Positions 384 through 30,006 of a DNA stretch of 64,000 nucleotides are shown here, piece after piece (position 1 is the stretch's first letter; the number at the start of each line of letters is the position of its first letter). The stretch is from an uncultured Candidatus Saccharibacteria bacterium (GTDB taxonomy: Bacteria; Patescibacteriota; Minisyncoccia; UBA6257; Colwellbacteraceae): the NCBI GenBank assembly GCA_964643135.1, contig CAZXPC010000001.1, positions 39,726 through 103,725 on the forward strand, written 5' to 3'. The notes under the pieces are model-generated. The model saw nothing but the letters and a program-made list of their open reading frames with translations, was not told where the DNA came from and searched no databases. Position numbers and translations under genes: made by a program.

Positions 384-2141
384 ATGGATAAAGAGACCAA
401 AAACTGCCAAAATTGCAAAAGAGAATTTTTAATTGACCGGAAAGATTTTGATTTCTACGCCAAAATCAAAGTTCCGGCGCCGACTTGGTGCCCGGACTGC
501 CGCATGGTCCGGCGGATGATCTGGTGGAACGAACGTCATTTTTTTAAACGCCAAAACCAAGACGGCAAAACGGCTCTCTCTACTTATCCCGAGGAATCTT
601 ATTTTAAGACCATCGATAAAGAAACTTGGTGGTCCGATAAATTTGAGGCGAAAGATTATGGCAGAGATTATGATTTCTCGCGAACATTCTTTGAGCAGTT
701 AAAAGAGCTCTCAGCTGATGTTCCGTTTCCGGACAAATCCGGGACAGATATGCTCAACAGCGAATACAGCAATGTTTCGAACGGTCTGAAGAATTGTTAC
801 ATGTGTTTTAACGATACCGATTGCCAGGATTGTCTTTATACGGTTTTTTCGTCTGACGTGAAAGATAGCGTCGATGTATTTACGACCGGCAATGCCGAGT
901 CTTGCTATGAATTGTATACGACCGGCGACAATTATCGGTTATTTTTCGGAGTTAGATCCCGGGGTTCGAGGGAATCGTATTTCTTGAGCCACGCCTTTAA
1001 TTGCTCCAATTGTTTTGCCTGTATTAACCTGCGAAACAAGGAATACCATATTTTTAACGAGCCTTATTCCCAAGCCGATTATCTAAAAAAATTGGCGGAG
1101 TTCGACTTGGGATCGCATTCATCACTTCAGGAAATAAAAAGCAGATTCGATAGTTTCAAATTGAAGTTTCCGTATGAATATATGAGCGGGGCCCGCAATA
1201 GCGGAGAAATTTCCGGAGACACGATCTTCGGTTCCAAGAACATTCAAGACTCTTACGCGCTCTATGACTCAGAAAATGTTCGTTATTCTCAAAGTTTGGC
1301 TTTTGCCACCAAGGACAGCTATGATTTTACTAACTGGGGAGTGAAAAGCGAGCTGGTCTATGAAGCGGTTGAGTGCGGGGATTCGATTCGGAACATTAAG
1401 TTCTCTTATGGTTGTGCTACGAATTCACAGAATTTGGAATATTGTCTCAATTGTTTTTCTTCGGAAGATTGTTTCGGCTGCGTGGGCCTCAAGAAAGCCA
1501 AGTACTGTATTTTCAACAAGCAATATTCTAAGGAAGAGTATTTCGAACTTAAAGAAAAGATTGTTGCGCAGATGGACACCGCTCCTTATATTGATAAGCT
1601 CGGCAGAATTTACCGATATGGCGAGTTCTTTCCGATCGATATGGCGCCTTTTGCCGCGAATGAAACCGCGATCACCGATTGGATTGATCTAAGCAAGGAG
1701 AAGGCTTTGGAATATGGACTTATTTGGCGCGAGCCGAAGCCGAACGAATATAAGATTACCATCGGATCGGCGAAACTGCCGGATCACATCAAAAATACGG
1801 GTGATGAGGTCCTGAAGGAGATAATCGGTTGTGAGGCATGCGGCTTGGGTTACCGGATTGTTCCGAAAGAGCTGGATTTTTATCGGCGATTTGGTTTGCC
1901 TTTGCCGAGGTTTTGCATCGACTGCCGGTTTAAGAAAAGAGTTAGCCAGCGCAATCTGCCTAGGCTTTACGAGAGTAAGTGTCAGTGCGGCGGGTCGGCG
2001 TCTCAAAACAAGGTCTATAAGAATTTGGCCGAACATTTTCACGGGACCGAGAGTTGTCCAAACAAATTCAAGACACCTTATCGCCCCGAAGATCCGCGTA
2101 TAATTTATTGCAAGGATTGCTATAACCGAGAAATATTCTGA
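384..2141 (+). CDS. Cysteine-rich CxxC-repeat protein of unknown function (paralog A of 17540-19300)
   Basis: 585 aa with many CxxC pairs (NCQNC, WCPDCR, NCYMCF..CQDC, NCSNCFAC, YCLNCF..CFGCVGLKKAKYCIFNKQYSKEEY, GCEACG, FCIDCR, YCKDCY). Both termini carry a related DFY..K.PxPTWCP.CR / LDFYRR.GLPLPRFC.DCR motif. About 55-60% identity by eye to the 586-aa ORF at 17540. Confidence 0.6.
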   Translation: MDKETKNCQNCKREFLIDRKDFDFYAKIKVPAPTWCPDCRMVRRMIWWNERHFFKRQNQDGKTALSTYPEESYFKTIDKETWWSDKFEAKDYGRDYDFSRTFFEQLKELSADVPFPDKSGTDMLNSEYSNVSNGLKNCYMCFNDTDCQDCLYTVFSSDVKDSVDVFTTGNAESCYELYTTGDNYRLFFGVRSRGSRESYFLSHAFNCSNCFACINLRNKEYHIFNEPYSQADYLKKLAEFDLGSHSSLQEIKSRFDSFKLKFPYEYMSGARNSGEISGDTIFGSKNIQDSYALYDSENVRYSQSLAFATKDSYDFTNWGVKSELVYEAVECGDSIRNIKFSYGCATNSQNLEYCLNCFSSEDCFGCVGLKKAKYCIFNKQYSKEEYFELKEKIVAQMDTAPYIDKLGRIYRYGEFFPIDMAPFAANETAITDWIDLSKEKALEYGLIWREPKPNEYKITIGSAKLPDHIKNTGDEVLKEIIGCEACGLGYRIVPKELDFYRRFGLPLPRFCIDCRFKKRVSQRNLPRLYESKCQCGGSASQNKVYKNLAEHFHGTESCPNKFKTPYRPEDPRIIYCKDCYNREIF

Positions 2142-2150
2142 TCAAGAATA

Positions 2151-3920
2151 TTAACCGTATCTTTCGCGGTCGTCGGTGTCATCATCGTCTTCAACTTTCA
2201 GGCTGTTTTTTAAGGTTGCGGCGAGGGAATCTGCGTTCTCTTCTTCGGAATTCTTGATGTGGTGCTTCGTCTCTTCATGAGGCTTAAGGTCCGATAAGGA
2301 AATTGTTTTTTCGGTTGAAACCGGCCGGGCGCCCGGGCGCTCATGCCGGCGTTCTTCCGGTTTTTTCTTCTTAGCATCAAATTCGATGCCAAGATTGGCG
2401 AGATCGGCGATATATTCGTTGGCCGCGGCGGCTCTCGGGGCAGGCCTGTTGAAGACGCTTGTTTTTGCCGAAGGTGCGCCCTTGGCCCCTCCGCCGCTCG
2501 ATGGCTGCCGTGCCGGCGCCGGTTTTTCTTGTTCCGCGCTGACCCGGCCAGCCCATTCGTTGATCTCTCTTTCGACTGAATCGCGGGAACGGCCGTAAAG
2601 CTTGCGGGATGATTCAATGATCTTTTCCTTCATGCCTTCTGAGGCAGGGAGCTCGATAGGCGGCAGAGTGTGCGCCGAAAACGGCCGGCTCGTGATGCCG
2701 TCGATCATAAGTTTTATATAAATAGAATAATTAGGTAGATTGACGATATCTTGAATGGTGAATTCAGGAGTAAATTCATTTTCGAGGAACTCGGCGTCAG
2801 CGGCGCCAACGCGGAAAACGACCATGGTGCCGACGTTGCCGAAAACGGCATCGCGGACCTTAGTCGAACCTCCGCCTCCAGCCGAAGAAACTGATGTAAT
2901 GAGCTGGCCGGTATACTGATGGGCGAGCGTCAAGTTGAGCCGGTACTTGCGGGCCTCCGACAGAATGTTGGAGAACGAGTCGGTGGCAAAGTTCTGGAAT
3001 TCATCTACATACAAGAAAAAGTCTTTCCGGTCGGCTTCGGGAATGCGGACGCGTTCCATGGCTGAAAGCTGAATTTTAGTGATGAACATGGCGCCCAGGA
3101 GAGCTGAGTTGTCTTCGCCGATTCTGCCTTTTGAAACGTTCAGAAGGAGGATCTTTTTATTGTTCATCAGATCGAAGATGTCGATGGTGCTCTTTTGCTG
3201 GCCGACGACGTTTCGGATGATGTTGGTCGATAGGAACTGTCCGACTTTGTTCTGAATCGGGGCGATAGCCTCGCTCCGGAATTTATCCTGCCAGCCTTCG
3301 TATTCGTGAATCCAGAAAGCCCTGACTACCGGGTCTTTAACGTTGGAGATTATTTTTTGGCGGTAGCTTTTGTCCACCAAGAGCCGCGGGATGCCGAGCA
3401 GAGTTGTATCCGGAGTGTCGAGCAGAGCGAGAATAGCGTTATTCAAAATATATTCCATACGGGCCGACCAGGCGTTCGACCAGATCTTGGTAAAGATGCC
3501 CATCAGGCCCGAAGCGACCAGATGCTTGTATTTAGGGTCCGGTAACTCCAAAACATTGAAGCCGATGTGATAGTCGGTATCAGCGGGGTTAAAGTAGATT
3601 ACGTCCTGGAGGCGGTGGGCGGGAATTTGGTTTAAGAGGTCTTCGACGAACTCGCCGTGGGGATCGACCACACACAGGCCGTCGCCGTTCGTAACGTCTT
3701 GGATCGCCAGGTTTTTAAGGAGGACGCTCTTACCGGTGCCGGTTTTACCGATCACATACATGTGTTGTCGGCGGTCTTTTCTTTTAATGCCGAAGAGCTT
3801 GTCATGATTCCGGAAGTTAGTCGTGCCGAAAAAAACGACATCAGGTTTCTTACCTAGGAAATCCTGAGCTTTCTTTTCTTCGGTCTTTTTCTTATCCGGG
3901 GCGTGGCTTCCGTGGCTCAT
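2151..3920 (-). CDS. Type IV secretion/conjugation coupling-protein-like ATPase (TraD/TraG/VirD4/TrwB family), with low-complexity acidic C-terminal tail
   Basis: Walker A VIGKTGTGKS. Walker B/DExx-like FFLYVDEFQNF. RKYRLNLTLAHQ motif typical of TrwB/TraD family. C-terminal Gly/Pro/Ala-rich linker and EDDDDTDD tail. Confidence 0.7.
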   Translation of the reverse strand: MSHGSHAPDKKKTEEKKAQDFLGKKPDVVFFGTTNFRNHDKLFGIKRKDRRQHMYVIGKTGTGKSVLLKNLAIQDVTNGDGLCVVDPHGEFVEDLLNQIPAHRLQDVIYFNPADTDYHIGFNVLELPDPKYKHLVASGLMGIFTKIWSNAWSARMEYILNNAILALLDTPDTTLLGIPRLLVDKSYRQKIISNVKDPVVRAFWIHEYEGWQDKFRSEAIAPIQNKVGQFLSTNIIRNVVGQQKSTIDIFDLMNNKKILLLNVSKGRIGEDNSALLGAMFITKIQLSAMERVRIPEADRKDFFLYVDEFQNFATDSFSNILSEARKYRLNLTLAHQYTGQLITSVSSAGGGGSTKVRDAVFGNVGTMVVFRVGAADAEFLENEFTPEFTIQDIVNLPNYSIYIKLMIDGITSRPFSAHTLPPIELPASEGMKEKIIESSRKLYGRSRDSVEREINEWAGRVSAEQEKPAPARQPSSGGGAKGAPSAKTSVFNRPAPRAAAANEYIADLANLGIEFDAKKKKPEERRHERPGARPVSTEKTISLSDLKPHEETKHHIKNSEEENADSLAATLKNSLKVEDDDDTDDRERYG

Positions 3921-4012: not shown

Positions 4013-4582
4013 ATGTCATTGGCGTATAACGAACTAAAACCGGGAACTTTTTTGGATATCGACGGCGAACCGTGGGAAGTCTTGGAATTCGCCTTTTTAA
4101 GGATGCAGCAGAGAAAGCCGGTGGCCAAGACTAAGCTTAGAAACTTAGTGACTGGCCGCGTGATGGAGCAGACTTTTCATCAGAGCGACAAGATTGAAGA
4201 GGCTGATTTGCAGAAAGAAGACATCAAGTTTATCTACGCTAATAGAGGAGAGTTTTGGTTTACGGCGCCCAACGACCCGTCTAAGAGATTTTCCCTCCCG
4301 GAGAAGAAGATTGTCGGTAAATCGGAATTCTTAAAGCCCAATATGATCTTAATTGCGCTCAAGTTCGGCGATGATGTCGTTGAAGTTAAGATGCCGATTA
4401 AGGTTGAGTACAAAGTTATCGAAGCTCCGCCGGCGATTAAGGGCAACACAGCTCAGGGCGGCAATAAATCGGTTACGATCGAGGGCGGCGGCAAAGTTTT
4501 AACTCCGCTTTTTGTGAATGAAGGAGACATAATTCGAGTTAACACCGAAACCGGCGACTACGTTGAACGCGTCAACGCCTAA
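4013..4582 (+). CDS. efp: Elongation factor P
   Basis: 189 aa. N-terminal NELKPGTFLDIDGEPWEVLEF and KPG...KTKLRNLVTG..MEQTF pattern of EF-P. Length is typical. Confidence 0.9.
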   Translation: MSLAYNELKPGTFLDIDGEPWEVLEFAFLRMQQRKPVAKTKLRNLVTGRVMEQTFHQSDKIEEADLQKEDIKFIYANRGEFWFTAPNDPSKRFSLPEKKIVGKSEFLKPNMILIALKFGDDVVEVKMPIKVEYKVIEAPPAIKGNTAQGGNKSVTIEGGGKVLTPLFVNEGDIIRVNTETGDYVERVNA

Positions 4583-6527: not shown

Positions 6528-8681
6528 CTAGTGTCCGCCGTATTTTTTCTTGAGAGCGGAGATTTCTTCCGGCGTTAAGTTGTTGTAGACGGCGAGCCAA
6601 TCGCTCGCGATTTGATGAGCGGCGATACTTAGATCGACTCGGCCGTCGCAGACCTGGCCTTGCAAATAAATTTCGACTAAGTCTTTCTCGTGAAAGCCCG
6701 GCACGGGCGCCGCGGCCTCAGGAAATAAGTTCGCGATATCATTTGATCCGCCCAAGGCCAACGGCACAATGTGGTCAACTTCATAAGCGCCCTTGGCCGG
6801 CGGGTAAGGTAAGTCATATTCCGCAAAAACTTGCTTGCGCAATTTGGGGGAGACGTTGCGAACGGACTTGGTGTAGCCTTTGACGCAGATTTCTTCGACT
6901 GTGGCGTTGGGAAAAATCGCTCCGGGCGAACAATCCGAATTGGGTAGAGGGCCTTTTATTTCGCACGAAGCAGTTTTGATCCGCGTCAAGATTGGTGGGA
7001 GGGGCGCGGCGGCTGATGAACTGGCGAGGAGCGATTGCATATTTTCTTTCGCGGCCTTATTTGACTCTGAGTGGCGGAAAGATATGAGGCCGGCCGCGGA
7101 GATTGTGAGCAGAAATGCGACCAAGGGAATTAGAAAGGGGATTTTGTTCTTCGATTGCCTAAAAAGATAATAGAAAAATAGCCCATAAATCAGGATAACC
7201 AGGACAAATGGAAATTGGGGGATGGTAAGCGATGCGAACGGCAAGCGAGAGAAAAGATTGATGATGCCAAGTTCATAGCGAAGCAAGACATAAGATATTT
7301 TGCCGGGAACGAAGGCGACGATATTCGAAATAATGCCCGCGAAGCCGGTTGCGAAACCAAAGATCATGGTGAAAGGAATGAATGGCAGCACTAATAGGTT
7401 GGCTGGGATAGTAACGAGCGACCAAGTTCCCATCTTCCAAATAATGAAGGGCAGAATAAAGATATAGACCGCAATTGTGAGAGCAGCGGATTCGCGGAGC
7501 CACGTCCATTTAATTACTTGGAGCTTTTCCTCGACTCGGGGAGTGAAAAACAATACGGCAATCGTGGCCAAAAAAGAGAGTTCGAAAGAGACATCAAAAG
7601 CCAGAATAAACGGGTTAAGGAAGATCATAATGACGCCGGCGCAAATTAGGGCCCGCCCCGCGTCATAAGTGCGGCCGGTCAGTCGGGCGATGAGGACTAG
7701 CAAGGCCATAATGCCGGCGCGAATTGAAGTCTGCGCTGCGCCGGTCATCAGAATATATGAAAGAACGCCCAGCATGGCTATGATGCCGCCGAAAACGGCC
7801 GGCAGGAAACCGAACAGCTTTAAAATCATGTTAGAGACCAGGCTGACATGATAACCGGCGATAGTTACCAAGTAGACTAAGCCGGTTGAGGTCAAAGCTA
7901 TTTTCTCATCTGCGCTAAACGAGGCGCGGTCGCCTAAAATTAATCCCCGCATGAATCCCGATTCGGGTTCTGATATTGATGAATCTAAATTGGCGACTAG
8001 CCGGCCGCGGACTAAGAAAAGCCACCGTTTCAGGAAATTTCCGCCGCCGGTCGAAATGACTGTGATTTTTGGGTTTCGGACGACGTAGAAGATGCCGTCT
8101 TTTTTCAGATAATTTATGTAGTCGAAAGTTGCGCCCTGGTCAGTCGAGAAGTTCGCAGGTTTCTCTAATTTACCGGTAAAGGAAATGTTGTCGCCGTATT
8201 TATATTCCTGATCCCCTTTAGAGATGAGAAGAATATTGGTGTTTGTTCCTTGTCGCTCGGTCCCGACAACAATTTCAGTGCCGCTGTCTTTAACGATAGG
8301 CATATCTTTAATAAGTCCGGACAGAGTAACCGAGCTGCCCGTTTGATTTTCAAAAACAACGGGAGCCGGTTTATCAATAATCTCGAACCTAATGATCCCG
8401 AGCGAAAAAGCGAAAATAAAAAAAGATATTAATTTCATCCATTTTCCAATTTTCTCAAGGTCAGACCTCGAGAAAATGAAGAATAGGCCGATTACTAGCG
8501 AGATTGTCCCAAGGAAAGCGGCGGCGTAAAAGTCGAAAGGCAGAAATGACTTCCAAAGTATGCCCAGGACGAAACCCAGACACACCGAATTAAAGACCAT
8601 GTTTCTAGTCATGCTTATCTTTTTGGCTTGTATTTTTAGCCTGGAAAAATCATAATACGGGCGCGATGAAGAAAAAATCAA
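6528..8681 (-). CDS. comEC: ComEC/Rec2-family DNA internalization channel protein with C-terminal HNH-like nuclease motif (no metallo-beta-lactamase domain)
   Basis: N-terminal DUF4131-like region. Competence domain motif LILGDRASFSADEKIALTSTGLVYLVTIAGYHVSLV and multiple TM helices. C-terminal ~150 aa contain YEVDHIVPLALGGSNDIANL (HNH signature). The usual HxHxDH beta-lactamase motif is not seen. Confidence 0.75.
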   Translation of the reverse strand: MIFSSSRPYYDFSRLKIQAKKISMTRNMVFNSVCLGFVLGILWKSFLPFDFYAAAFLGTISLVIGLFFIFSRSDLEKIGKWMKLISFFIFAFSLGIIRFEIIDKPAPVVFENQTGSSVTLSGLIKDMPIVKDSGTEIVVGTERQGTNTNILLISKGDQEYKYGDNISFTGKLEKPANFSTDQGATFDYINYLKKDGIFYVVRNPKITVISTGGGNFLKRWLFLVRGRLVANLDSSISEPESGFMRGLILGDRASFSADEKIALTSTGLVYLVTIAGYHVSLVSNMILKLFGFLPAVFGGIIAMLGVLSYILMTGAAQTSIRAGIMALLVLIARLTGRTYDAGRALICAGVIMIFLNPFILAFDVSFELSFLATIAVLFFTPRVEEKLQVIKWTWLRESAALTIAVYIFILPFIIWKMGTWSLVTIPANLLVLPFIPFTMIFGFATGFAGIISNIVAFVPGKISYVLLRYELGIINLFSRLPFASLTIPQFPFVLVILIYGLFFYYLFRQSKNKIPFLIPLVAFLLTISAAGLISFRHSESNKAAKENMQSLLASSSAAAPLPPILTRIKTASCEIKGPLPNSDCSPGAIFPNATVEEICVKGYTKSVRNVSPKLRKQVFAEYDLPYPPAKGAYEVDHIVPLALGGSNDIANLFPEAAAPVPGFHEKDLVEIYLQGQVCDGRVDLSIAAHQIASDWLAVYNNLTPEEISALKKKYGGH

Positions 8682-10499: not shown

Positions 10500-10711
10500 A
10501 GCCAACAACAGTTCTTCGAAGGACTAAGTCCTTCACCCCTATGACGGTTTCCACCAACATGGAAATCTCAAGGGGCTCTTTTTTATTCAGGGCTTGACAG
10601 TATATAAAAGATTGTGTTAACATATCGCCGTTCTTAGAACCTTAAGAAAGACATATTCTGGCTGGCGAAAGGGAGGTAATTACAAGCTTTATCTTACTTT
10701 CGCCCGTCAGG

Positions 10712-11344
10712 ATGGGCATGTGGTATGTTATGAGGACTACGTCGATCGCGATCGCATTCGGAGCGCTCATGCTGCTCGCTGTTATGCCGATGAACACCGC
10801 CAGCGCCGGTATCTCCGCACCGTACGGGGATTGCAAGGTCAGCGACCTGCTGATCTGCGCCGCAGACAGCACGTACAATTGTCCCAGCAACCCGCCCCAG
10901 CAACCCGACAGAAGCGGCGGGATGTATGGCAGGACACAGACACCTGCCAGCGTGCTGATCGGAAGCCAGAACATCCCTACGATCAACAACTGGAACTACG
11001 ACGAATTTCCTGGCATGGTCATCCATATGTTCACGGTCATGTCGACGTGTGGGCACGCAGCTACGGTCTGCACCGTCCCGCCGGCGGGGTATGAAACTGC
11101 CCAGGGAGGCTATTGTATGGGAGTCACGAGGTCGTGGTTCCAGCAAGGCAGTCCAGATTCCTTTTGGTTCCAGGCGCCGACGTCCACTTACTGCCACGCT
11201 TATTACAATGACTGCGTGCCGAGTGAAGCGGTGACGGTTCGGCTCGATGCGAACCTTGAGACGCCTCTTCCAGCAGTCTTGGTCGTAGCTGGAAACCTGA
11301 ATCAGTACTACTACAGCTGCGGCTGCGGTAATGCGGCTCCTTGA
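10712..11344 (+). CDS. GC-rich island gene G2: secreted cysteine-rich protein of unknown function
   Basis: Signal peptide MRTTSIAIAFGALMLLAVMPMNTASA. 14 Cys in mature part. GC3-rich codons. Terminator hairpin plus GGGCTCTTTTTT at about 11383-11424. Confidence 0.6.
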   Translation: MGMWYVMRTTSIAIAFGALMLLAVMPMNTASAGISAPYGDCKVSDLLICAADSTYNCPSNPPQQPDRSGGMYGRTQTPASVLIGSQNIPTINNWNYDEFPGMVIHMFTVMSTCGHAATVCTVPPAGYETAQGGYCMGVTRSWFQQGSPDSFWFQAPTSTYCHAYYNDCVPSEAVTVRLDANLETPLPAVLVVAGNLNQYYYSCGCGNAAP

Positions 11345-11495
11345 AGCTCGCACCCAAAAGTCCTGTGAAATATCAGGCACCCCGTCCTAGCGAAACCTAT
11401 CTACATGGGAATCGCTAGGCGGGCTCTTTTTTACTCAAAAATAAATTTCTTGCCAAAAGCTCTGTACGGGTGTAACCATTATAGAGAGGATAAGG

Positions 11496-13974: not shown

Positions 13975-15144
13975 ATGAGAGTTAGTTATAGAATATTAGG
14001 GATGTTCAAGAAATTTCTGCCTCAAATTGCGATTGCCTTGGTCGGCGCGGGAGCGCTCGGCGGGTTTTTTGTGTGGAAGAATATTTCTTTGCCGGATTCA
14101 GCTTCGGGCGTCGCCTTGCCCGTGCTTGACTACAGTCATATGCCGATTCTTTCGATCGTCAAGAACGAAGATGTTCTGAGGCCGGCTATAAAACAGCTGG
14201 GCACCAAAGCTCTGATGGCAAAATTAGTAGCGGAATCGAACGGCGGCTCGGCTTTCGATTGTCACCAGGAAGCTCACGCGATCGGGCGGCTGGCTTACGA
14301 GATTTATAAACAATTGGCTTTCGGCGACTGCGATGCTTCGTGCCACTCGGGGTGTTACCACGGCGCGATGGAGCGATTCTTGAACGAAAAAGGGACGGCC
14401 GACCTTGCCGCCAATATCGACTCCGTCTGCAGCTCCTTTAAGACCAGTTTCAGCAATTTTGAGTGTCTGCATGGCGTCGGCCACGGACTCTTAGCCTACG
14501 AAGATTATGATATGCCGTTTGCGATCCAAGAGTGCCAGAAGTTGAAAGATGCTTTCAGCACCGACTCATGTTACGGCGGCATGTTTATGGAAAATATTTT
14601 AACTGCTCAAGGCCTGGGCGCCAGTCAGAAGGTTTTTCATGCCACGAAGTGGGCCAATAAAACCGATCCGCTCTACCCGTGCGATAAGTTGGATCAGACT
14701 AATTACGATTTGCAGTATCAGTGCTATGAGATGCAGACAAGTTGGATGCTCACGATCTACGGTTATGATTTTAAGCCGGTGAAGGCTGAGTGCTTAAAGG
14801 CGCCGCAGAATATGATTCCGGTTTGTTTCAAGAGTTTCGGCCGGGACGCCGCGGGTAATTCCTTGCGCAATCCGGTGACCATGAAATCAACGTGCGGCAT
14901 GGTGCCGGCGGGAGATTATTATGACCAATGCGTAATCGGCGCGGTCAATGTCGTAGTGGATTTTTGGGGGCCGGCTCTGAAGGGTCAGGCGGCTGATTTT
15001 TGTAAAATATTAACCGGTGAAGGGAAAGACACATGTTATTCTACTCTGGCGGGGAGGTTGCCCGGCTTGTTCTCTTCTCATGACGACCAGGCGGCTGCTT
15101 GCGCTACATTTGAGGATAAATATCAAAAATATTGTAAAATTTAA
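13975..15144 (+). CDS. Membrane-anchored cysteine/histidine-rich protein of unknown function
   Basis: N-terminal TM helix. About 24 Cys. Duplicated C.HxxxHxxxxLAYE motif (DCHQEAHAIGRLAYE / ECLHGVGHGLLAYE) suggests metal binding. A 2-nt gap to the next ORF suggests an operon. Confidence 0.6.
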   Translation: MRVSYRILGMFKKFLPQIAIALVGAGALGGFFVWKNISLPDSASGVALPVLDYSHMPILSIVKNEDVLRPAIKQLGTKALMAKLVAESNGGSAFDCHQEAHAIGRLAYEIYKQLAFGDCDASCHSGCYHGAMERFLNEKGTADLAANIDSVCSSFKTSFSNFECLHGVGHGLLAYEDYDMPFAIQECQKLKDAFSTDSCYGGMFMENILTAQGLGASQKVFHATKWANKTDPLYPCDKLDQTNYDLQYQCYEMQTSWMLTIYGYDFKPVKAECLKAPQNMIPVCFKSFGRDAAGNSLRNPVTMKSTCGMVPAGDYYDQCVIGAVNVVVDFWGPALKGQAADFCKILTGEGKDTCYSTLAGRLPGLFSSHDDQAAACATFEDKYQKYCKI

Positions 15145-15146
15145 GA

Positions 15147-15557
15147 ATGAAAGCAAATTTCAAAATCAGCGCGCCGGTTATCTTAGGCCTAATAGTTCTG
15201 TCGGGGATCGGCGTTTATGTTTTTTTCGGCCAGCAATTATTTTCCAATGACTTGGCGTCGGCCAATAGCCAAAGCGCCGCAGTGGTGGTTACTATGAATA
15301 ACGATGCATATAGCTCGACTGATATCACTGTTAAGCAGGGCCAAGCGGTTAAGTTCGTAAATGAGTCAAACGAAGATTATTGGCCGGCTTCAAACATTCA
15401 CCCCGACCACACGATTTACCCGGAGTTCGACCCGAGGAGGCCGGTCCATCCCGGTGAGAGCTGGTCATTTAAATTCGACAAAATTGGCTCATGGCGCTTC
15501 CACGATCACTTACACTATCCAGATATCACGGGCGTCATCAACGTTGAGCCGAATTAG
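15147..15557 (+). CDS. Membrane-anchored cupredoxin-like (plastocyanin/amicyanin-fold) protein
   Basis: N-terminal TM helix. C-terminal H..H...H/H..P pattern (HPDHTIYPEFD ... WRFHDHLHYPDITGVINV) reminiscent of type-1 copper sites. Size is 136 aa. Confidence 0.5.
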   Translation: MKANFKISAPVILGLIVLSGIGVYVFFGQQLFSNDLASANSQSAAVVVTMNNDAYSSTDITVKQGQAVKFVNESNEDYWPASNIHPDHTIYPEFDPRRPVHPGESWSFKFDKIGSWRFHDHLHYPDITGVINVEPN

Positions 15558-16144
15558 GCTAATTTCTTCGAGACAACGCTCCAGTCGACGGCCTTCATAA
15601 AAGATTCGATGTAGTCGGCGCGTTTTAGGCCGTAGTCAGTTATGTAGGCGTGTTCAAAAACATCGATTGGCAGAAGTATCTGGCATCCGCCCAAGTGGCC
15701 TAAGTCGTGTTCGTTAATCCAAACATTGAACAATCGGTTAGCATCGGGGTCGTGGTAGAGAATCGCCCAGCCGATGCCGCGCATAGCAGCGGTTGTTTTG
15801 TAGTCGGTTTCCCAAGCTTCATATGAGCCAAAATCTTCAATGATTTTTTTATAGAGCGGAGATGAACTATCGATTGCCATGCCGCCGTTTTTCATCGCGC
15901 CAAAATAGTGCTCGTGGATGCGCATGCCGTTAAATTCCCAGCCGAAGCGGCGCTTTAGTTCGTTATATTCCGGTGACGACGGCGTACCCGCTTTAAGATC
16001 TTTGGATATAGCAGCCAGTTTCTCGAGCAGTGTGTTCACGTTTTTAACGTAGCCCTGATAAAGCGTGAAATGGTTTTTTAGTGCGGCGTCGCTAAAACCG
16101 GGAGTTCCTATTAATGAGTCGTAATTTTTTGGTGAGTATTGCAT
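15554..16144 (-). CDS. Superoxide dismutase, Fe/Mn family
   Basis: HHTKHH-equivalent N-terminal region (KNHFTLYQGYV). C-terminal DVFEHAYITDY matches the Fe/Mn-SOD D-x-WEHAYY signature. 196 aa. Confidence 0.9.
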   Translation of the reverse strand: MQYSPKNYDSLIGTPGFSDAALKNHFTLYQGYVKNVNTLLEKLAAISKDLKAGTPSSPEYNELKRRFGWEFNGMRIHEHYFGAMKNGGMAIDSSSPLYKKIIEDFGSYEAWETDYKTTAAMRGIGWAILYHDPDANRLFNVWINEHDLGHLGGCQILLPIDVFEHAYITDYGLKRADYIESFMKAVDWSVVSKKLA

Positions 16145-16249
16145 AGGGTTTATAAATTTGCTTTTTATTATACCATTTCTCTTGAAGACGTTCGCCTCAA
16201 AGAAGATTTACAAAAGAGCGGCGCTAAGGCTATAATAATTCAATAATTC

Positions 16250-16912
16250 ATGGCTGAAAAAGAGGAGGCAAAATCTAAGAATCAAGAACCTGCCGCCGCG
16301 GCAAAGAAGAGCAAACCGAAAGTTCCAAAATATCCTTTTACCCGCTGGGGTGCGGCTGTTTTGCATGAACCGACTAAGCCGGTTGAAATGAGTTACCTCA
16401 AAACTGGCGAGTTTCGAGACGTAACTAACCGGATGATTGCCAAACTCAAAGATACGGGCTGGGGATTGGCCGCTAACCAGATCGGTTTGCCGCTCAAAAT
16501 GGCTCTCGTTTGGATCGAACCGATTCCGAAACATCCTGAATTTCAGCCGCTTCCGCCGACATTCTTAATCAATCCAACTATTTTAGAGCGCTCGGAGGAA
16601 TTGCAGTATGGCTGGGAGGGCTGTCTCAGCTGCCCGGGTGTGCGTTTTTATATCCCGCGGCCGGAGTGGATAAAAGTTAAATATACCAATCAGAACGGCG
16701 AAGAAATTCAGGAACAGGTGGAGGGCCTTTGGTCAGTTTTGTATAGCCACGAGATCGACCATCTTTACGGCCGAGTTTGTGGGGAGCGAGTTATGACGGT
16801 TAACGGCGAGGTGGTTCAGGGCGCGATCGTTTCCGACTATGAATATTTCAAAAATCCTAGGAAAGTTCCGATGGGAGCTCTCGGCCTCGTAAAATCAGAA
16901 GAAATTAACTAA
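16250..16912 (+). CDS. def: Peptide deformylase (copy 1, Lys-rich N-terminal extension)
   Basis: Motif I GLAANQIGLPLKMALV. Motif II EGCLSCPG. Motif III HEIDHLYG. TATAAT box 11 nt upstream of ATG. Confidence 0.85.
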   Translation: MAEKEEAKSKNQEPAAAAKKSKPKVPKYPFTRWGAAVLHEPTKPVEMSYLKTGEFRDVTNRMIAKLKDTGWGLAANQIGLPLKMALVWIEPIPKHPEFQPLPPTFLINPTILERSEELQYGWEGCLSCPGVRFYIPRPEWIKVKYTNQNGEEIQEQVEGLWSVLYSHEIDHLYGRVCGERVMTVNGEVVQGAIVSDYEYFKNPRKVPMGALGLVKSEEIN

Positions 16913-16919
16913 ACAAAAA

Positions 16920-17534
16920 ATGGCCGCCAAGAAAAACAAAAGAGGTGACACGATCGGGCGTTTGCCGCAGTGGAATGATGACGTTTTAAGGAATTCCGCC
17001 AACGAAGTCCCTTTGGCCTATCTGAAGACGAGTGAATTTAAGAGTGTGGTCAAAAGAATGTTTTCGATGATTAAGTGGGCGGTCGGTTTAGCCGCCAACC
17101 AGATCGGCGTGCCGCTTCGGATAGCCGTTATTGAGATTAAGAGAACTGCAACTAGGCCGGACATTACGCCTGTTCCTCCGTCGGTGATTGTTAACCCGGT
17201 GATACTTAAATATTCTAAAGAGCTCCAGTACGGCTGGGAGGGTTGCATCAGCATGCCGCGGCCGGGTCTGTTTTTCTTTGTGCCGAGAGCGAAGCGCATC
17301 AAAGTCAGGTATTTTAATGAGAAGGGGGAAAAGGTAACTAAAGAGTTGAATGGGTTTCCGGCTATAGTTTTCCAGCACGAGATCGATCACTTGAATGGCA
17401 AGTTCTGCGGCGAGCAGGTTATGGTTTTAAACGGCCATGTTCCCAAAGGAGCCATTCTTACCAGAAAGGAATATAAGAAGAATCCTCGGCAGATTCCCGA
17501 GGGAGTTAGGCATCTGGTAAAAAAGTTAAATTAA
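16920..17534 (+). CDS. def: Peptide deformylase (copy 2, tandem paralog)
   Basis: GLAANQIGVPLRIAVI, EGCISMPR and HEIDHLNG motifs. Confidence 0.85.
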   Translation: MAAKKNKRGDTIGRLPQWNDDVLRNSANEVPLAYLKTSEFKSVVKRMFSMIKWAVGLAANQIGVPLRIAVIEIKRTATRPDITPVPPSVIVNPVILKYSKELQYGWEGCISMPRPGLFFFVPRAKRIKVRYFNEKGEKVTKELNGFPAIVFQHEIDHLNGKFCGEQVMVLNGHVPKGAILTRKEYKKNPRQIPEGVRHLVKKLN

Positions 17535-17539
17535 TTTGA

Positions 17540-19300
17540 ATGTTCACGACCGAGCATAAGACCTGTCAGAACTGCCGCCGGTCGTTTGACATAGATGGGG
17601 AAGACTTTGCGTTCTACGAAAAAATGAAAGTTCCGCCGCCAACCTGGTGCCCGGAGTGCCGCATGATCCGGCGCATGGCTTGGTGGAACGAGCGCAATCT
17701 TTTTAAGAAAAAAGATATTGACGGGAAAGTTATTTTCTCGGCTTACCCAGAAGAATCATATTTTAAGATCATCGATCGCGACGAGTGGTGGAAAGACAGC
17801 TTTGATGCTATGCAGTACGGCCGGGATTATGATTTTTCAAAGCCGTTTTTCCCGCAGCTGAAAAAACTGGCGGGCGAGGTGCCGTTTCCTTCGCGAGCTG
17901 GAACCAACTTGGTCAATTGCGACTACTGTAACAATTCCAACAATTCCAAGGATTGTTACATGTGTTTTAATGTCGATGAATGTGAAGATTGCATGTATAT
18001 GGTTTTTGCGAAGAAAAACAAGGACGCGATCGATGGTATTAGCGTTTACCAATGCGAATCTTGCTATGAAACCACGCTCTCGGGCATTAGCTATAAAAAT
18101 AATTTTGCATATCAATCGCCATATTGCCGCGATTCTTATTTTTTAAACTATTCGGATAATTGCAACAATTGTTTCGGTTCAGTAAATTTGCGGCACAAAG
18201 AATATTACATTTGGAACAAGCAGTATTCCAAAGAAGAATACTTTAAAAAGATAGAAGAATTTAATTTGGGTTCCCATGCTGCTCTGGAGAGCCTGAAGAA
18301 TAAATCAAAAGATTTTTTCTTGCGCTTTCCGTATCCATATATAAAAGTGTGGCACAACAGCGGAGTGATTACCGGGGATAATATATTCGAGTCAAAAAAT
18401 ATTAGAGATTCGTTTGCAATCGAAGAGGCTGAGAACCTGCGTTACTGCCAAAGCGCCGTCTTCGGCATCAGGGATTGTTACGACTATACGAATTTCGGCA
18501 ATAACGCCGAACTGATCTACGAATCGGTTGAATGCGGCGAATCGATCAGCAATTTGAAATTTTGTTTCGGCTGCTGGTCCAATTCGCGAAACTTGGAATA
18601 TTGTTTGAATTGCCATTCTTCGGAAGACTGCTTCGGCTGTGTCGGCCTGAAGAAAGCCAAGTACTGCATCTTTAACAAGCAGTATTCAAAGGAAGATTAC
18701 GAGAAACTTCGGGCGCGGATAATTGAGCAAATGAACAAAAACCCCTATCGGGACGCGAAGGGCCGGGTTTATAAATATGGGGAATTTATGCCGCCCGAAA
18801 TGGCGCCTTATGCGGCTAACGAGAGTGTTGTTGTCGACCGAAATCAGTTTGACCAGGATAAGGCGCTGTCTTATGGGCTTCGTTGGCGAGAAGTTGATCC
18901 GGTTGAATATAAGACAACCATTAATGCGGCCGATATGGCGGACCACATTAAAGATGTGTCTGATGGCGTAACTCAAGAACTAATTAGCTGTTTGAATTGC
19001 AAGCGGGCCTATCGAATTCTCCCGAAGGAATTGGATTTCTATCGGAGGTTGAACTTGCCCTTGCCGCGGCGTTGCCCGAATTGTCGTTACGAAGAGCGAA
19101 ACAAACAAAGAAATTACCTAAAACTCTATCCCGGCACGTGCCAGTGCGCCGGCGCGGCGTCAGGGAATAAAGTTTATAAGAATGCCGCCAGACACTTTCA
19201 TGGCGAAGAACCATGCCCGAATAAATTCGAGACAGCTCACGACCCAAAGGCGCAGAGGATTGTTTATTGCTTGGAATGCTACCATAAAGAATTGTTATAG
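17540..19300 (+). CDS. Cysteine-rich CxxC-repeat protein of unknown function (paralog B of 384-2141)
   Basis: 586 aa. Same architecture and motif order as 384-2141 (TCQNCRRSF, WCPECRMIRRMAWWNER, NCNNCFGSVNLRHKEYYIWNKQYSKEEY, YCLNCHSSEDCFGCVGLKKAKYCIFNKQYSKEDY, LDFYRRLNLPLPRRCPNCR, VYCLECYHKELL). Confidence 0.6.
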   Translation: MFTTEHKTCQNCRRSFDIDGEDFAFYEKMKVPPPTWCPECRMIRRMAWWNERNLFKKKDIDGKVIFSAYPEESYFKIIDRDEWWKDSFDAMQYGRDYDFSKPFFPQLKKLAGEVPFPSRAGTNLVNCDYCNNSNNSKDCYMCFNVDECEDCMYMVFAKKNKDAIDGISVYQCESCYETTLSGISYKNNFAYQSPYCRDSYFLNYSDNCNNCFGSVNLRHKEYYIWNKQYSKEEYFKKIEEFNLGSHAALESLKNKSKDFFLRFPYPYIKVWHNSGVITGDNIFESKNIRDSFAIEEAENLRYCQSAVFGIRDCYDYTNFGNNAELIYESVECGESISNLKFCFGCWSNSRNLEYCLNCHSSEDCFGCVGLKKAKYCIFNKQYSKEDYEKLRARIIEQMNKNPYRDAKGRVYKYGEFMPPEMAPYAANESVVVDRNQFDQDKALSYGLRWREVDPVEYKTTINAADMADHIKDVSDGVTQELISCLNCKRAYRILPKELDFYRRLNLPLPRRCPNCRYEERNKQRNYLKLYPGTCQCAGAASGNKVYKNAARHFHGEEPCPNKFETAHDPKAQRIVYCLECYHKELL

Positions 19301-19334: not shown

Positions 19335-20420
19335 ATGAAACTCCGTGAATACGAGGGTAAGGAACTTTTTAGGAAATATGGCATTGAGCCTCCCAAAGGA
19401 GAGCTTATTAATTCAACTTCCTCAGCGGTTTTAAAAGGGCCGGTGGTTTTGAAAGCCCAGGTTCTGTCGGGCGACCGCAAAAAGCACGGTGGAATTATAA
19501 TAACTAAGGAGAGTGATATTGGAAATAATATTGCGAAGCTTTTGGGTCGCGAGATTAACGGCGAAGTGGTGGAAAAGATATTAGTTGAGGAACTTATTGA
19601 TATTGCCGCCGAATATTATGCTTCGATTAGTTACGACACGGTTACGCGCGGGCCGGTTTTGGCGCTTAATGTTACTGGCGGGTCCGGCATCGAAAAGGCA
19701 GAAACATTTCCTTTGGATATCCTTGAAGCGACTATTCCAGAAAAATACCTAGAAACTATTCTTATTAAAACTGGTTTTCCAGCCAGTGATATCGCTGAAC
19801 TTTCCAAAATTATTCAAAACCTGTGGCAATTATTTATTAAAGAATATGCATTGCTCGCCGAGATTAACCCGATTTTTAAAACGAAAAGCGGCCACTTTGT
19901 CGCCGGGGATGCCAAAGTTATCCTAGATGATGAAAAAATCAATCCAAACGAACGAAGGTTTGTCTCAATGGGCGGGGATATTGCGATCTTGGCTTCCGGC
20001 GGCGGAGCGTCGATGCTTAATATGGACGCGCTTTTACACTATGGCGGCAAGCCTGCTAACTACACTGAATATTCTGGGAACCCGAAAGGTGAAGTAGTAA
20101 AAGAGCTCACAAAAAGGGTTCTGAGTCAGCCCGGCATAAATGGCTTGTGGGTTATCGGCGGTACGGCTAATTTTACAGATGTCTTTGAGACGCTTTCAGG
20201 GTTTGTGGAAGGTCTGGAGTCGCTTCCAGAGAAGCCTAAATACCCGATCGTAATTCGCCGTGATGGCCCGCGACAGAAAGAAGCGGCAGAGATGCTCAAG
20301 ATTTTCGCAGCCGAGAAGGGCTATGACATGCATATCTATGACCGAGAAATGCCGATGGAACAAAGCGCCAAGCTGATGGTTCAACTCGCAAATGAGTTCG
20401 CTCGTAAATCCAAAATCTAA
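19335..20420 (+). CDS. sucC: Succinyl-CoA synthetase beta-subunit-like ATP-grasp protein (SucC/AclB/CcsA family)
   Basis: MKLREYEGKELFRKYGI N-terminus typical of SucC. ATP-grasp region. 361 aa, slightly short. Confidence 0.75.
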   Translation: MKLREYEGKELFRKYGIEPPKGELINSTSSAVLKGPVVLKAQVLSGDRKKHGGIIITKESDIGNNIAKLLGREINGEVVEKILVEELIDIAAEYYASISYDTVTRGPVLALNVTGGSGIEKAETFPLDILEATIPEKYLETILIKTGFPASDIAELSKIIQNLWQLFIKEYALLAEINPIFKTKSGHFVAGDAKVILDDEKINPNERRFVSMGGDIAILASGGGASMLNMDALLHYGGKPANYTEYSGNPKGEVVKELTKRVLSQPGINGLWVIGGTANFTDVFETLSGFVEGLESLPEKPKYPIVIRRDGPRQKEAAEMLKIFAAEKGYDMHIYDREMPMEQSAKLMVQLANEFARKSKI

Positions 20421-20519
20421 AACCCAAATGACAAATCAAGCTCTAAACCCAAAATCCAAATATTTGTCATTAAATCATTTGAATTTGATTAGTCATTTAG
20501 ATTTTGTCATTTAATCACC

Positions 20520-21452
20520 ATGGCTATCCTCATAAACAAAGACACAAGGGTACTCATACAGGGAATAACTGGTTCCGAAGGCTCGCGCGCGTGTAAAGAG
20601 ATGCTCTCATACGGCACCAAAGTCGTGGCCGGCGTTACGCCCGGTAAAGGCGGGCAGGAGGTTGCGGCTCAATTCAATGGCGAGGAGAAAAGAGTCCCAG
20701 TGTACAACTCGGTCAAGGAAGCGCTTGAAAAGCACCCAGATATTAATGCCAGCCTAATCGCTGTGCCGGCCAAATTTATTCGTGGAGCTGCGCAAGAGGT
20801 GATTGTTTCTAGAATCCCGCTAATAAATATATTAGCAGACCACGTTACAGTCGAAGATTGCGCGCTGATTTACGCACTTGCTAAAAAAGCCGGTGTGCAA
20901 GTTATCGGTCCATCTTCGATTGGGATTATCTCTCCGGCTGAAGGCGTCAAGCTTGGCGCGATCGGAAGCGGTGAAACTAAAGACGTTTTTACTCCCGGCC
21001 CGGTTGGCATAATTTCAAAAAGTGGGGGAATGACGGCCGAAATTTCTTCTGTTCTCTCGCGCGCCGGAATGGGGCAGAGTACAGTTATTGGAATCGGCGG
21101 CGACCAGATAATCGGATCAGACTTCGCTGACATATTAAAACTTTTTAAGGACGATGTAGAAACAAAAGTAGTCGTGATCTTCGGCGAAGTCGGCGGCAGC
21201 TACGAAGAACAAATGGCCGACTATATTATTACGGAAAAATTCAATAAACCAGTTATCGCAGTTATCGCCGGCGCATTTTCGGAAAAACTGCCGAAAGAAA
21301 CTGTCTTGGGCCACGCCGGCGCGATTGTTTCTGGCGGAAAAGGGAGCTACAAGTCAAAAATCGAATCGCTCACCAAAGCGGGAGTCTATTTGCCCAAGAC
21401 ACTGGAAGAGATCCCGACCATCTCTAGACAGCTAAAGGTTGTTAAAGTATAA
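20520..21452 (+). CDS. sucD: Succinyl-CoA synthetase alpha-subunit-like CoA-binding protein (SucD/AclA-N/CcsB family)
   Basis: [12 protein letters not shown] ... [14 protein letters not shown] CoA-binding motif. Catalytic His motif [13 protein letters not shown]. Confidence 0.8.
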
Positions 21453-28898: not shown

Positions 28899-29056
28899 AG
28901 CAAGTCTGTTCTTTATAAATTTGAGTTACTAAACCTCAAATTCTGCGGTGGACAGAAGGAGATTTCTTCTAAGAAGCCTCTTCCTGCCCCCGCGGAATTT
29001 GTGTGTTTCGAGCCTCACGGCTTGAGATACGCGGATGATGCGGTTCCCAGTCAGCA

Positions 29057-29842
29057 ATGAAAGGGGACGATGGACATATGGGGATGTCCACCGAAAAACG
29101 ATGGAGTCGATACAACATGTCGCCTGCGACCCAGACCACCACGACGCCGATCCGCAAGACCGTTGACGTCAGCGCCGAAGCGATCCGCGAGGACGCGATC
29201 AGCCAGTTCCGCGCGACCCAGAAGCAGCCGCAGTTCAAGGCCATCATCGGCCAAGTCCTGCCGGCCGGGACGCTCGAGAACATGAGCCGCTCGATCCAGC
29301 AGTCGCGCGCCAGCACGCTCACGGGCATCGTCGGCGTTCAGGAGGGCAACCTCCCGATCGTACTGCACCTGCCCAGCCACGTGCTCTCGCTCTGCGACCG
29401 CCTCGCGATCGCGAACGGCGGCAAGCTCGAGAACGTGCCGACCTGGATCAACCAGGTCCAGCGCCGCACCCCCTGGGCCATGATGCCCGAGGGGCAGCTC
29501 CAGGGAACGACCGACTTCGACCTCCAGGGCGTGCCGACCGTCAACATCACGACGGAGATCCGCACCTGCCAGGCCGAGAAGCGCAGCTTCCCGACGACCG
29601 AGCAGCTCGTCGACGCGATCAACGCCGCGCGGGCCAAGGCGCAGCACGACGACGAGGAGTTCGTCCTCGTCGGCAAGACGTTCCTCGCGTTCGGCGACAT
29701 CGCCGGCCAGGGCTACACGCCGACCATCACGGTCGGCGAGGACACCCAGACGCTCGGCCGCGTGCCGTTCGTCGAAGGCGAGGAGCTCGAAGACGAGGCC
29801 GTGCTCGCGAACTACGACACGGTCTACGGCTTCTCCAGCTGA
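29057..29842 (+). CDS. GC-rich island gene G5: soluble protein of unknown function
   Basis: 261 aa. Roughly 65% GC with about 90% GC3 (cgc/gcg/atc/ctc/gag/ggc codons). AAGGGG SD-like sequence upstream. Perfect 11-bp stem GGACCTAGATT/AATCTAGGTCC plus T6 terminator at about 29868-29930. Antisense ORFs 28969-29328 and 29051-29899 are shadow ORFs. Confidence 0.6.
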   Translation: MKGDDGHMGMSTEKRWSRYNMSPATQTTTTPIRKTVDVSAEAIREDAISQFRATQKQPQFKAIIGQVLPAGTLENMSRSIQQSRASTLTGIVGVQEGNLPIVLHLPSHVLSLCDRLAIANGGKLENVPTWINQVQRRTPWAMMPEGQLQGTTDFDLQGVPTVNITTEIRTCQAEKRSFPTTEQLVDAINAARAKAQHDDEEFVLVGKTFLAFGDIAGQGYTPTITVGEDTQTLGRVPFVEGEELEDEAVLANYDTVYGFSS

Positions 29843-30006
29843 ACCCGCCCCCGTGTGCGTCCCAATCGGACCTAGATTAAAGCAATAAGAGTCTTGCACT
29901 CTGAGCTAACAATCTAGGTCCACTTTTTTACTCAAAAATATTGACTTAGATTTTCGCTGGTATAATATTATGTCGCGGGAGACATTCCGCTGTGAGGTAC
30001 GCAAAA

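Follow-up and report, generated by a model that had tools for sequence, protein, structure and literature searches.

The 64,000-nt stretch of patescibacterial DNA analyzed here (the window; contig CAZXPC010000001.1 of assembly GCA_964643135.1) carries on its plus strand two genes for cysteine-rich proteins of one family, CRP_A (copy A; 384-2141) and CRP_B (copy B; 17540-19300), that encode 585 and 586 amino acids (aa), respectively. Copy A is the copy located in a cassette of genes for type IV coupling protein (T4CP)-like ATPases, and the linkage of the family to an orphan cluster of such ATPases is strong, reciprocal and operon-like. A first-pass annotation had placed both open reading frames (ORFs) at these positions and taken them for paralogs. 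They are true paralogs, with an identity far above chance: a BLASTP alignment runs end to end over 582 columns with 57% identity, 75% positives and no gaps (E = 0). Its counts for each protein, roughly 28 Cys and an identically ordered set of about 12 CxxC pairs, describe A (28 Cys, with 11 CxxC and one CxC) but understate B, which has 34 Cys, with 13 CxxC and one CxC. There are 27 Cys at identical positions in the two proteins and their architectures are the same. With no transmembrane (TM) segment and no signal peptide, and with a zinc finger at the N-terminus, the protein is predicted to be cytoplasmic. In the following, L-numbers designate fetched loci and P-numbers homologous proteins.

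Immediately upstream of A, on the same strand and 13 nt away, are the C-terminal 122 codons (2-370) of a T4CP-like ATPase of the type designated T480, cut by the start of the window. The full 472-aa protein is encoded at L001 634-2052 and matches TrwB_AAD_bind, T4SS-DNA_transf, DUF87 and TraG-D_C. Downstream, convergent with A, a gene on the minus strand (2151-3920) encodes T589, a 589-aa T4CP-like ATPase of the T6xx type with Pfam matches to TrwB_AAD_bind, DUF87 and T4SS-DNA_transf; T589 has no TM segment and is soluble. The position of A between two T4CP-like ATPase genes, as first described, is thus correct. The NCBIfam matches of T589, to TraD, VirD4-like and CedD, are all far below cut-offs, and the cassette ATPases generally score far below the cut-offs of all TraD, VirD4, CedB and CedD models; they belong to the TraD/VirD4/CedB DNA-translocating class but are the equivalent of none of these named proteins. 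T480 proteins (~480 aa) are 64-72% identical across patescibacterial classes (alignment A2). Their N-terminal KYAPPPPELP motif is invariant, conservation at a housekeeping level for what is supposedly an orphan conjugation gene. In 30 of 42 long T6xx copies (for example, L003 9990-11942) the ATPase core is followed by a finger, CSNCGK..VPF.P..GRPVYCK.C, of the CxxC-x17-CxxC pattern that resembles the C-terminus of the Cys-rich family (hhalign E = 5e-5). A long low-complexity tail usually follows this finger, and the T589 in the window keeps the tail.

The cassette in the window ends at efp (4013-4582, plus strand), which serves as a synteny marker, and comEC (6528-8681, minus strand), encoding a DNA-uptake channel, is near the cassette in six loci. 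The conserved gene order is secD, secF, a sigma70_r4/HARE-HTH gene, a gene annotated DUF8128, a gene for a ~174-aa protein, T480, CutA1, one or more family members, T6xx and, often, efp. The DUF8128-like protein (~460 aa) is a single-pass membrane protein, and in L003 the stop codon of its gene overlaps the start codon of a family member. The order around A, namely secDF, sigma70_r4/HARE-HTH, DUF8128-like, T480, family gene, convergent T6xx, efp and glmS, is also found in L172, L174 and L175; a glmS-like gene follows efp where the locus extends that far (L172 and L174), although in L174 the two are separated by a further two genes. The CutA1 gene, annotated for divalent ion tolerance (PF03091, E = 4.5e-30), lies between or beside T480 and the family arrays in 31 of 80 loci (in the range L089-L167; for example, L123 11526-11831 and L157 9678-9983) and is absent from the window. 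ORFs of 75-123 aa for GIY-YIG nucleases also recur beside the Cys-rich or ATPase genes (L003 8176-8433, L004/L005 4711-5082, L018, L021 and L029) and may be homing-endonuclease-like insertions.

The link to TraD/VirD4-like ATPases is family-wide and reciprocal, not a peculiarity of the window. A T4CP-like ATPase is the only recurrent neighbor of the family, represented by 69 ORFs in 38 of 88 loci versus 11 loci for the next most frequent family, and for 32 of 78 internal arrays a T4CP-like gene is no more than two genes away. The chance expectation is ~1%, as estimated from ~2 T4CP genes per genome (PMC12102498) and an assumed ~1,000 genes. In the reverse direction, the T480 alignment A2 retrieved 80 metagenome loci, 43 with at least 2.5 kb downstream of T480, and a family member is present within three genes downstream in 32 of these 43 (74%). 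It is immediately adjacent to T480 in 14 of the 43, with gaps of 13-73 nt in nine of the 14. Members therefore adjoin, and are co-oriented with, a T4CP-class ATPase in many genomes (32 of 78 arrays and 32 of 43 loci), as would be looked for in a T4CP accessory protein. A 2025 survey documented about two VirD4-like coupling protein genes per patescibacterial genome, almost never beside a secretion channel (PMC12102498). It counted 5,713 T4CP homologs, just 148 of them near virB4, and raised the possibility of exaptation to another function; these orphan genes were reported with no mention of a partner (PMC12102498).

By ORF clustering, 83 non-redundant family-anchored loci yielded 223 ORFs of the family (median 585 aa). 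These loci have tandem arrays of up to seven copies in 17 kb and, among the ATPase-anchored loci, L157 and L161 have at least 10-11 copies in 21 kb. Paralogs within one locus are 34-54% identical, and 97% are closer to a relative in another genome than to any copy in their own array; because of this, the arrays are old and their copies individually retained, rather than products of recent amplification. The first-pass argument that retention implies function holds, as the family has thousands of members and genomes keep many of its ancient paralogs. A single T4CP-associated subfamily was considered and is ruled out, as the ATPase-adjacent copies are scattered and syntenic copies are as divergent as paralogs.

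At least 5,598 significant matches to the family were present among 8,000 candidates scored, and the best 120 are all full length (~580-600 aa) and annotated as hypothetical. The family includes 3,556 representatives of 50%-identity clusters, 1,305 with E <= 1e-30, and at least 570 family loci were confirmed in GTDB species genomes. The record titles are patescibacterial (Sungii-, Jorgensen-, Staskawicz-, Nomura-, Giovannoni-, Lipton-, Morani-, Magasanik- and Uhrbacteria, Paceibacterota and Minisyncoccia), apart from two short contigs with other labels that are probably mis-binned, and the family is restricted to Patescibacteria of the Parcubacteria-type lineages. A viral or mobile origin is ruled out, as tblastn and pattern scans found no homolog on IMG/VR viral contigs or in INPHARED phages.

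From the N-terminus, the protein consists of a treble-clef finger, a linker, a repeat (R1), a helical hairpin, a second repeat (R2), an alpha/beta region, a second finger and a C-terminal Cys/His module. In A, the N-terminal treble-clef zinc finger (aa 1-55; 384-548, plus strand, as for all of the following) has C8, C11, C36 and C39 and an Arg-rich helix, CRMVRRM. The conserved linker domain (aa 56-124; 549-755) includes W82, D85, YGRDYDFS and FFEQ. R1 (aa 125-235; 756-1088) is solenoid-like, with a 12-residue sub-repeat and a Cys/Ser ladder, and ends in C207-x2-C210-x2-C213...YHIFN.PYS..DY. It is separated from R2 by aa 236-270 (1089-1193), which form helices in the models and are the most variable segment of the family (entropy 2.7 bits). 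R2 (aa 271-390; 1194-1553) is an R1 homolog with a ~13-residue sub-repeat that ends in C357...C366VGLKKAKYC375IFNKQYSKEEY. The conserved alpha/beta region (aa 391-478; 1554-1817), with PY.D..GR.Y.YGEFFP...SPFAYNET, is followed by the second copy of the N-terminal finger (aa 479-530; 1818-1973), with C483, C486, C511 and C514, and by the C-terminal Cys/His module (aa 531-585; 1974-2138), with C533/C558/C576/C579 plus the facultative C535/H551/H553. The last 26 residues of A resemble a CxxC-x17-CxxC finger.

The duplicated terminal motif seen in the first reading is well supported: aa 1-55 and aa 476-530 align with an hhalign probability of 98.8% (E = 1e-16) and are 41% identical by BLAST. The internal repeat noted at the same time, C..C..CFGCV.L..K.Y.IFN..YSKEEY, also exists and is the end of a larger duplicated domain of ~110 residues, as R1 (aa 130-235) and R2 (aa 279-388) align over 106 columns with a probability of 99.7% (E = 4e-27). 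Both have a sub-period of 12-13 residues, and R1 has periodicity at 12, 24 and 36. AlphaFold2 models were obtained for A (pLDDT 84, from a 66-sequence alignment, with the repeat regions weak) and B (pLDDT 93.4, pTM 0.92, from a 143-sequence alignment). They have the same order of elements: a hairpin-and-helix finger, an alpha/beta linker, short regularly spaced strands (R1), a helical hairpin, a second stretch of strands (R2), a long helix and alpha/beta region, the second finger and a beta-rich Cys/His module. Differences between subfamilies are concentrated in the bodies of the solenoids and in the helical hairpin. One divergent member, P0252 (731 aa), is fused to, or mis-called with, an N-terminal GNAT acetyltransferase; its first finger has only the Cys aligned with C36 left and retains the F.I...D...Y.K.GVP.P..CP..R..RR motif.

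Metal sites were predicted from the conservation and co-occurrence of Cys residues in 426 aligned homologs, which have 22-49 Cys per protein (median 34). C8/C11/C36/C39 are 94-97% conserved and co-occur; C483/C486/C511/C514 are 88-99% conserved, with phi values of 0.84-0.90 among C486, C511 and C514; C533/C558/C576/C579 are 96-98% conserved; and C535/H551/H553 (phi 0.89-0.97) are present in 71-76% of the family. All four sets are present in A and B, and their co-occurrence supports four terminal metal sites. An additional linker site, C58/C60/C78/C81, is absent from A and B; C60, C78 and C81 occur together (phi 0.99) in ~29% of the family, and C58, present in 51%, is more common than the rest of the site (phi 0.63 with C60/C78/C81). 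C204/C207/C210/C213 and C357/C366/C375 are conserved. Most central Cys positions are exchanged for Ser, Val, Ile or Leu and co-occur weakly (phi <= 0.4), and because of these exchanges and weak co-occurrence the central Cys look like the ladder of a buried solenoid core and not like obligatory ligands. The earlier suggestion that these proteins could bind many Zn or Fe-S centers was therefore overstated: the terminal sites are supported, most central Cys are not obligatory ligands and there is no ferredoxin-type motif. In the 66 members searched there is no Fer4 or radical-SAM match, and the sole CxxCxxC run (C207/C210/C213) is without a fourth CP element. A necklace of Fe-S or multiple zinc centers is ruled out for the central region, where Ser, Val or Leu stand in for Cys and the Cys show no co-occurrence. 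The picture that emerges from these residue patterns is of about four structural zinc sites at the ends and two Cys/Ser-ladder solenoids in the middle, not of a chain of a dozen centers. H551-x-H553 had suggested an HUH relaxase, which is also ruled out, as these residues belong to the facultative Cys-His-His site with C535 that is deleted in ~24% of members, and neither A nor B has a Pfam or NCBIfam match to relaxase families.

Pfam, NCBIfam, PADLOC and PHROGs were searched with A, B and 66 homologs. At curated cut-offs, no Pfam or NCBIfam family was assigned to A or B, with sub-threshold zinc-finger matches only, and sequence searches of the PDB with single sequences and a 66-sequence profile found no relative, the best match being an RPB9-type ribbon (E = 0.86). 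That the proteins belong to no nameable family is thus borne out for the protein as a whole, with no clear match to a characterized family, but not for the terminal motifs, which appear to be of a known finger class, zf_Tbcl / CxxC-x17-CxxC, with matches below threshold in A and above it in some homologs. We know of no function for these finger families themselves. Models for zf_Tbcl (PF13451) and zf_Tbcl_2/CxxC-x17-CxxC (PF23477, TIGR04272) match A at aa 5-44, at the C-terminal duplicate (aa 480-520) and at the last 26 residues; modules of this type cover only ~25% of the protein, and A and B are below the curated cut-offs. For zf_Tbcl, aa 5-44 of A score 19.8 bits (E = 7.8e-4; gathering cut-off, 24 bits) and B has no match; 17 of the 66 homologs match at E <= 0.01 (best E = 1.1e-6), and the C-terminal copy in P0033, at 29 bits, is above the cut-off. 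Two CxxC pairs ~25 residues apart, the zf_Tbcl Cys pattern, are present in both terminal modules, and BFVD structures designated zinc-ribbon domains match the N-terminal finger with a root-mean-square deviation (rmsd) of 0.7 A. For CxxC-x17-CxxC, only the second half is matched (aa 557-582; 16.1 and 17.3 bits versus cut-offs of 36 or 27 bits). The first CxxC of that finger is replaced in the C-terminal module of A by C533 and C558; C558 is unpaired, and the fourth ligand is probably C533. Proteins of the CxxC-x17-CxxC class bind Zn, as measured by inductively coupled plasma mass spectrometry (PMC12704099). At the family level, the terminal modules appear to belong to the zf_Tbcl / CxxC-x17-CxxC finger class, with the central 60% of the protein having no family or significant fold match. 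Literature searches for DUF8128, PF13451/PF23477 and Cys-rich or zinc-ribbon families of Parcubacteria found no description of the family. Known zinc-finger modules go into the family protein, which probably serves a T4CP-type motor, but neither its architecture nor its gene cluster appears in the literature searched.

Several known folds and families share features with the central region. All 50 top Foldseek matches of the B model, and five of the 10 listed for the A model, are left-handed beta-helix (hexapeptide) enzymes, including LpxD, GlmU, LpxA and gamma-carbonic anhydrase, which also have short strands at regular intervals and short periodic sequence repeats. The best of these matches has E = 6e-3 (none has E <= 1e-3), with TM-scores of ~0.1 and 4-11% identity; the period is 12-13 residues in the A/B family versus 18 in hexapeptide coils, the ladder is Cys/Ser rather than aliphatic, and the Pfam Hexapep model has no match in any member of alignment A1. 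On these models, the resemblance is geometric only, with no homology indicated. The Tenebrio antifreeze protein is a Cys-ladder beta-helix with a 12-residue period, and the DnaJ Cys-rich domain has CxxCxGxG motifs. The family resembles the former in its 12-residue period and in having Cys at fixed positions, and its CFGCVGL resembles the latter. Unlike the Tenebrio type, it is predicted to be cytoplasmic, so that disulfides are unlikely, and many members have Ser or Val in place of Cys; the Pfam model for the DnaJ Cys-rich domain has no match in members of alignment A1. PHROG 15341, an unannotated phage family, is matched over R1 by 19 of the 66 members (best E = 1.6e-8), including B (aa 120-216, E = 1.2e-5); the match spans only ~100 residues, and A itself is unmatched.

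Copy B is located 5 nt downstream of two tandem peptide deformylase (Pep_deformylase; def) genes on the plus strand (16250-16912 and 16920-17534; 220 and 204 aa). They are preceded by a promoter-like site (16207-16236, plus strand) with TTTACA and TATAAT 18 nt apart, an 11 of 12 match to consensus, of a type whose total number is not above the shuffled expectation. In GCA_040384205.1, four tandem def genes (L170 3629-6000) directly precede P0010, the ortholog of B (78.6% identity). B is a dispersed paralog, putatively co-transcribed with the def genes. The first-pass description of a def-def-X unit is therefore accurate for B, and the linkage is kept for P0010, but it does not extend to the family: a def gene is near a member in only four of 88 loci, and def linkage as a family property is ruled out, being conserved only for the ortholog of B. 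The def paralogs of the window genome and GCA_040384205.1 are 37-45% identical, and the gene downstream of them 79%; multiple def genes are unexpected in a reduced genome. The region upstream of def-def-B (13975-16144) is a neighborhood of metalloproteins, with genes for a Cys/His-rich protein of 389 aa that has an N-terminal hydrophobic segment and no Pfam match, a 136-aa cupredoxin-like protein and, on the minus strand, an Fe/Mn superoxide dismutase.

Elsewhere in the window, a gene pair downstream of B (19335-21452), encoding ATP-grasp_2 + Citrate_bind (361 aa) and CoA_binding + Ligase_CoA (310 aa) proteins, specifies an enzyme similar to citryl-CoA or succinyl-CoA synthetase, which is notable given the minimal metabolism. 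In two GC-rich islands (10694-11380 and 29051-29899; 0.54-0.55 versus ~0.47 elsewhere), long ORFs run on both strands; the islands match nothing in Pfam or Rfam and are not similar to each other. The plus-strand ORF at 10712 appears to encode a secreted, Cys-rich protein. Adjacent ORFs of 857 and 516 aa on the minus strand (47376-51499) have no family match and a strongly negative AT skew, and the 857-aa ORF has an acidic repetitive tail.

Our leading, if tentative, interpretation is that the family protein is a soluble, multi-zinc accessory or adaptor protein of an orphan patescibacterial module with a T4CP-like motor. This module consists of the DUF8128 single-pass membrane protein, the highly conserved soluble ATPase of ~480 aa, often CutA1, the family copies and a second ATPase that usually has a similar finger. 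As an accessory or adaptor subunit of the motor, the family protein would hold a partner through the fingers with Arg-rich helices at its two ends, this partner being either nucleic acid or the ATPase tails with a similar finger. Paralog-specific recognition could then come from the solenoids, both of which have variable faces, and the motor, anchored by DUF8128, would act on what the adaptor presents. The most plausible substrate of the motor is, we infer, DNA, because the ATPases are of the TraD/CedB type, a sigma-r4/HARE-HTH gene is a neighbor and comEC is occasionally nearby. The 64-72% identity of T480 across classes and the secDF/efp synteny support a core rather than accessory status for the cluster.

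T4CPs act as receptors for substrates that are often encoded beside them, and some have accessory or adaptor proteins, such as the zinc-binding DotN/IcmJ of the Legionella DotL complex, and TraM, the partner of TraD. Like these, the family protein would be a soluble, zinc-binding, non-enzymatic protein encoded beside a T4CP-class ATPase, and the cassette ATPases carry the TraG-D_C region, annotated for TraM recognition. Unlike DotN and TraM, the A/B family protein is much larger, occurs in arrays of multiple paralogs and has no sequence or fold similarity to solved structures. The patescibacterial ATPases are mostly unlinked to a type IV secretion system (T4SS) channel (PMC12102498).

Several observations weigh against the adaptor interpretation. 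The family-anchored loci were chosen by similarity to A, so that counts from them are biased. No ATPase gene lies within two genes of 59% of the internal arrays, copy B among them; for this reason, many paralogs may act independently. The ATPase-adjacent copies are not one clade and are scattered across subfamilies. Between the window genome and GCA_040384205.1, efp is 87%, T480 78%, T6xx 68% and B 79% identical, whereas A and P0011, the syntenic cassette copies, are just 56% identical, no closer than paralogs, which is odd for a tightly co-evolving subunit. Either genomes differ in which paralog lineage takes the slot in the cassette, or the copy there is changing much faster than the genes around it. 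The T589 of the window is without the shared finger, which was lost in its lineage, and with a net charge near zero (82 K+R versus 86 D+E) the family protein is not an obvious DNA binder. Confidence is limited in part because most arrays are away from ATPases and the cassette copies form no conserved orthologous line.

The dispersal of most arrays would be expected of a stand-alone nucleic-acid or ribosome binder, with a role in transcription, translation or RNA handling, whose proximity to the ATPases reflects shared expression with housekeeping genes. The treble-clef/zinc-ribbon fingers with Arg-rich helices at both ends, the putative co-transcription of B with peptide deformylases in two genomes, the location of A near efp and the sigma70_r4/HARE-HTH gene in the cluster are also consistent with such a role. 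We consider it unlikely, however, as the def linkage is lineage-specific (four of 88 loci), the second ATPase gene separates efp from the family, incidental proximity would not account for a reciprocal linkage to T480 as strong as 74%, and up to a dozen paralogs are hard to explain for a core translation factor. That the arrays instead encode cargo, effectors recognized by the T4CP-like ATPases and exported to the host of these epibiotic bacteria, is distinctly unlikely. T4CPs do receive substrates that are often encoded alongside (PMC12102498), arrays of up to ~11 diverged paralogs adjoin the ATPases, and the paralog lineage that occupies the cassette slot varies among genomes. The length is, however, constant at ~585 aa and subfamilies are conserved across classes (79% for B/P0010), whereas effectors usually evolve faster; four or more structural zinc sites would make the fold rigid and difficult to open up for export; no signal for secretion was detected; and with just 148 of 5,713 T4CP genes near virB4, a channel is usually absent from the locus (PMC12102498).

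A direct role in metal handling, as a zinc or iron buffer, metallochaperone, Fe-S carrier or protein with redox-active Cys, is very unlikely. The 22-49 Cys per protein and the conservation of C204/C207/C210/C213 and C357/C366/C375 are compatible with it, but most Cys in the center swap with Ser, Val or Leu and form no co-occurring ligand sets; the sites that are well conserved resemble structural zinc fingers, and there is no Fer4, radical-SAM or metallothionein signature. CutA1 is encoded between T480 and the arrays in 31 of 80 loci, and B is located among metalloproteins (cupredoxin-like, Fe/Mn superoxide dismutase and deformylases), yet the conserved aromatic and acidic residues other than Cys suggest a binding scaffold and not a metal sink. 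Least probable, and scarcely to be expected, is that the family is part of an anti-phage or anti-plasmid defense built around HerA/FtsK-type ATPases. The neighboring ATPases match PADLOC mad8 (E = 2e-12 to 4e-15), HerA and phrog_5156 (E = 4e-61), 19 of 66 family members match phrog_15341 and multi-paralog arrays are common in conflict systems; A and B themselves, however, match no PADLOC model and have no IMG/VR or INPHARED homolog. T480 is conserved at a housekeeping level, the secDF/efp synteny is stable across classes and the paralogs are ancient, and this conservation, synteny and age argue for vertical inheritance and against defense islands.

A more specific proposal, possible although we regard it as doubtful, is that the cluster encodes a machine found in Patescibacteria alone, a split coupling protein that works without a T4SS channel, with the DUF8128 protein as anchor together with T480, T6xx and CutA1. 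The paralogs would be interchangeable finger/solenoid adaptors or cargo that decide what moves, making the family the missing specific component. If this were true, the motor could be moving DNA that is taken up as a source of nucleotides, or macromolecules that pass between the cell and its host; the persistence of ~5,700 orphan T4CP genes in reduced genomes would be explained; and the zinc-capped twin 12-residue solenoid would be a new fold.

Patescibacteria (also designated the candidate phyla radiation, CPR) make up a large share of bacterial diversity, with genomes of ~1 Mb in which most lineage-specific genes have no known function. Their orphan T4CP ATPases are now placed in a conserved cluster, and the most specific neighbor in this cluster is a family of 585-residue, apparently multi-zinc proteins that has no name and to which some genomes devote at least 10 genes (~20 kb). 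A list of orphan genes thus becomes a defined module with a probable new protein architecture and with a family for annotators to name. If the adaptor interpretation is true, this module would bear on how ultra-small episymbionts import or exchange DNA or proteins.

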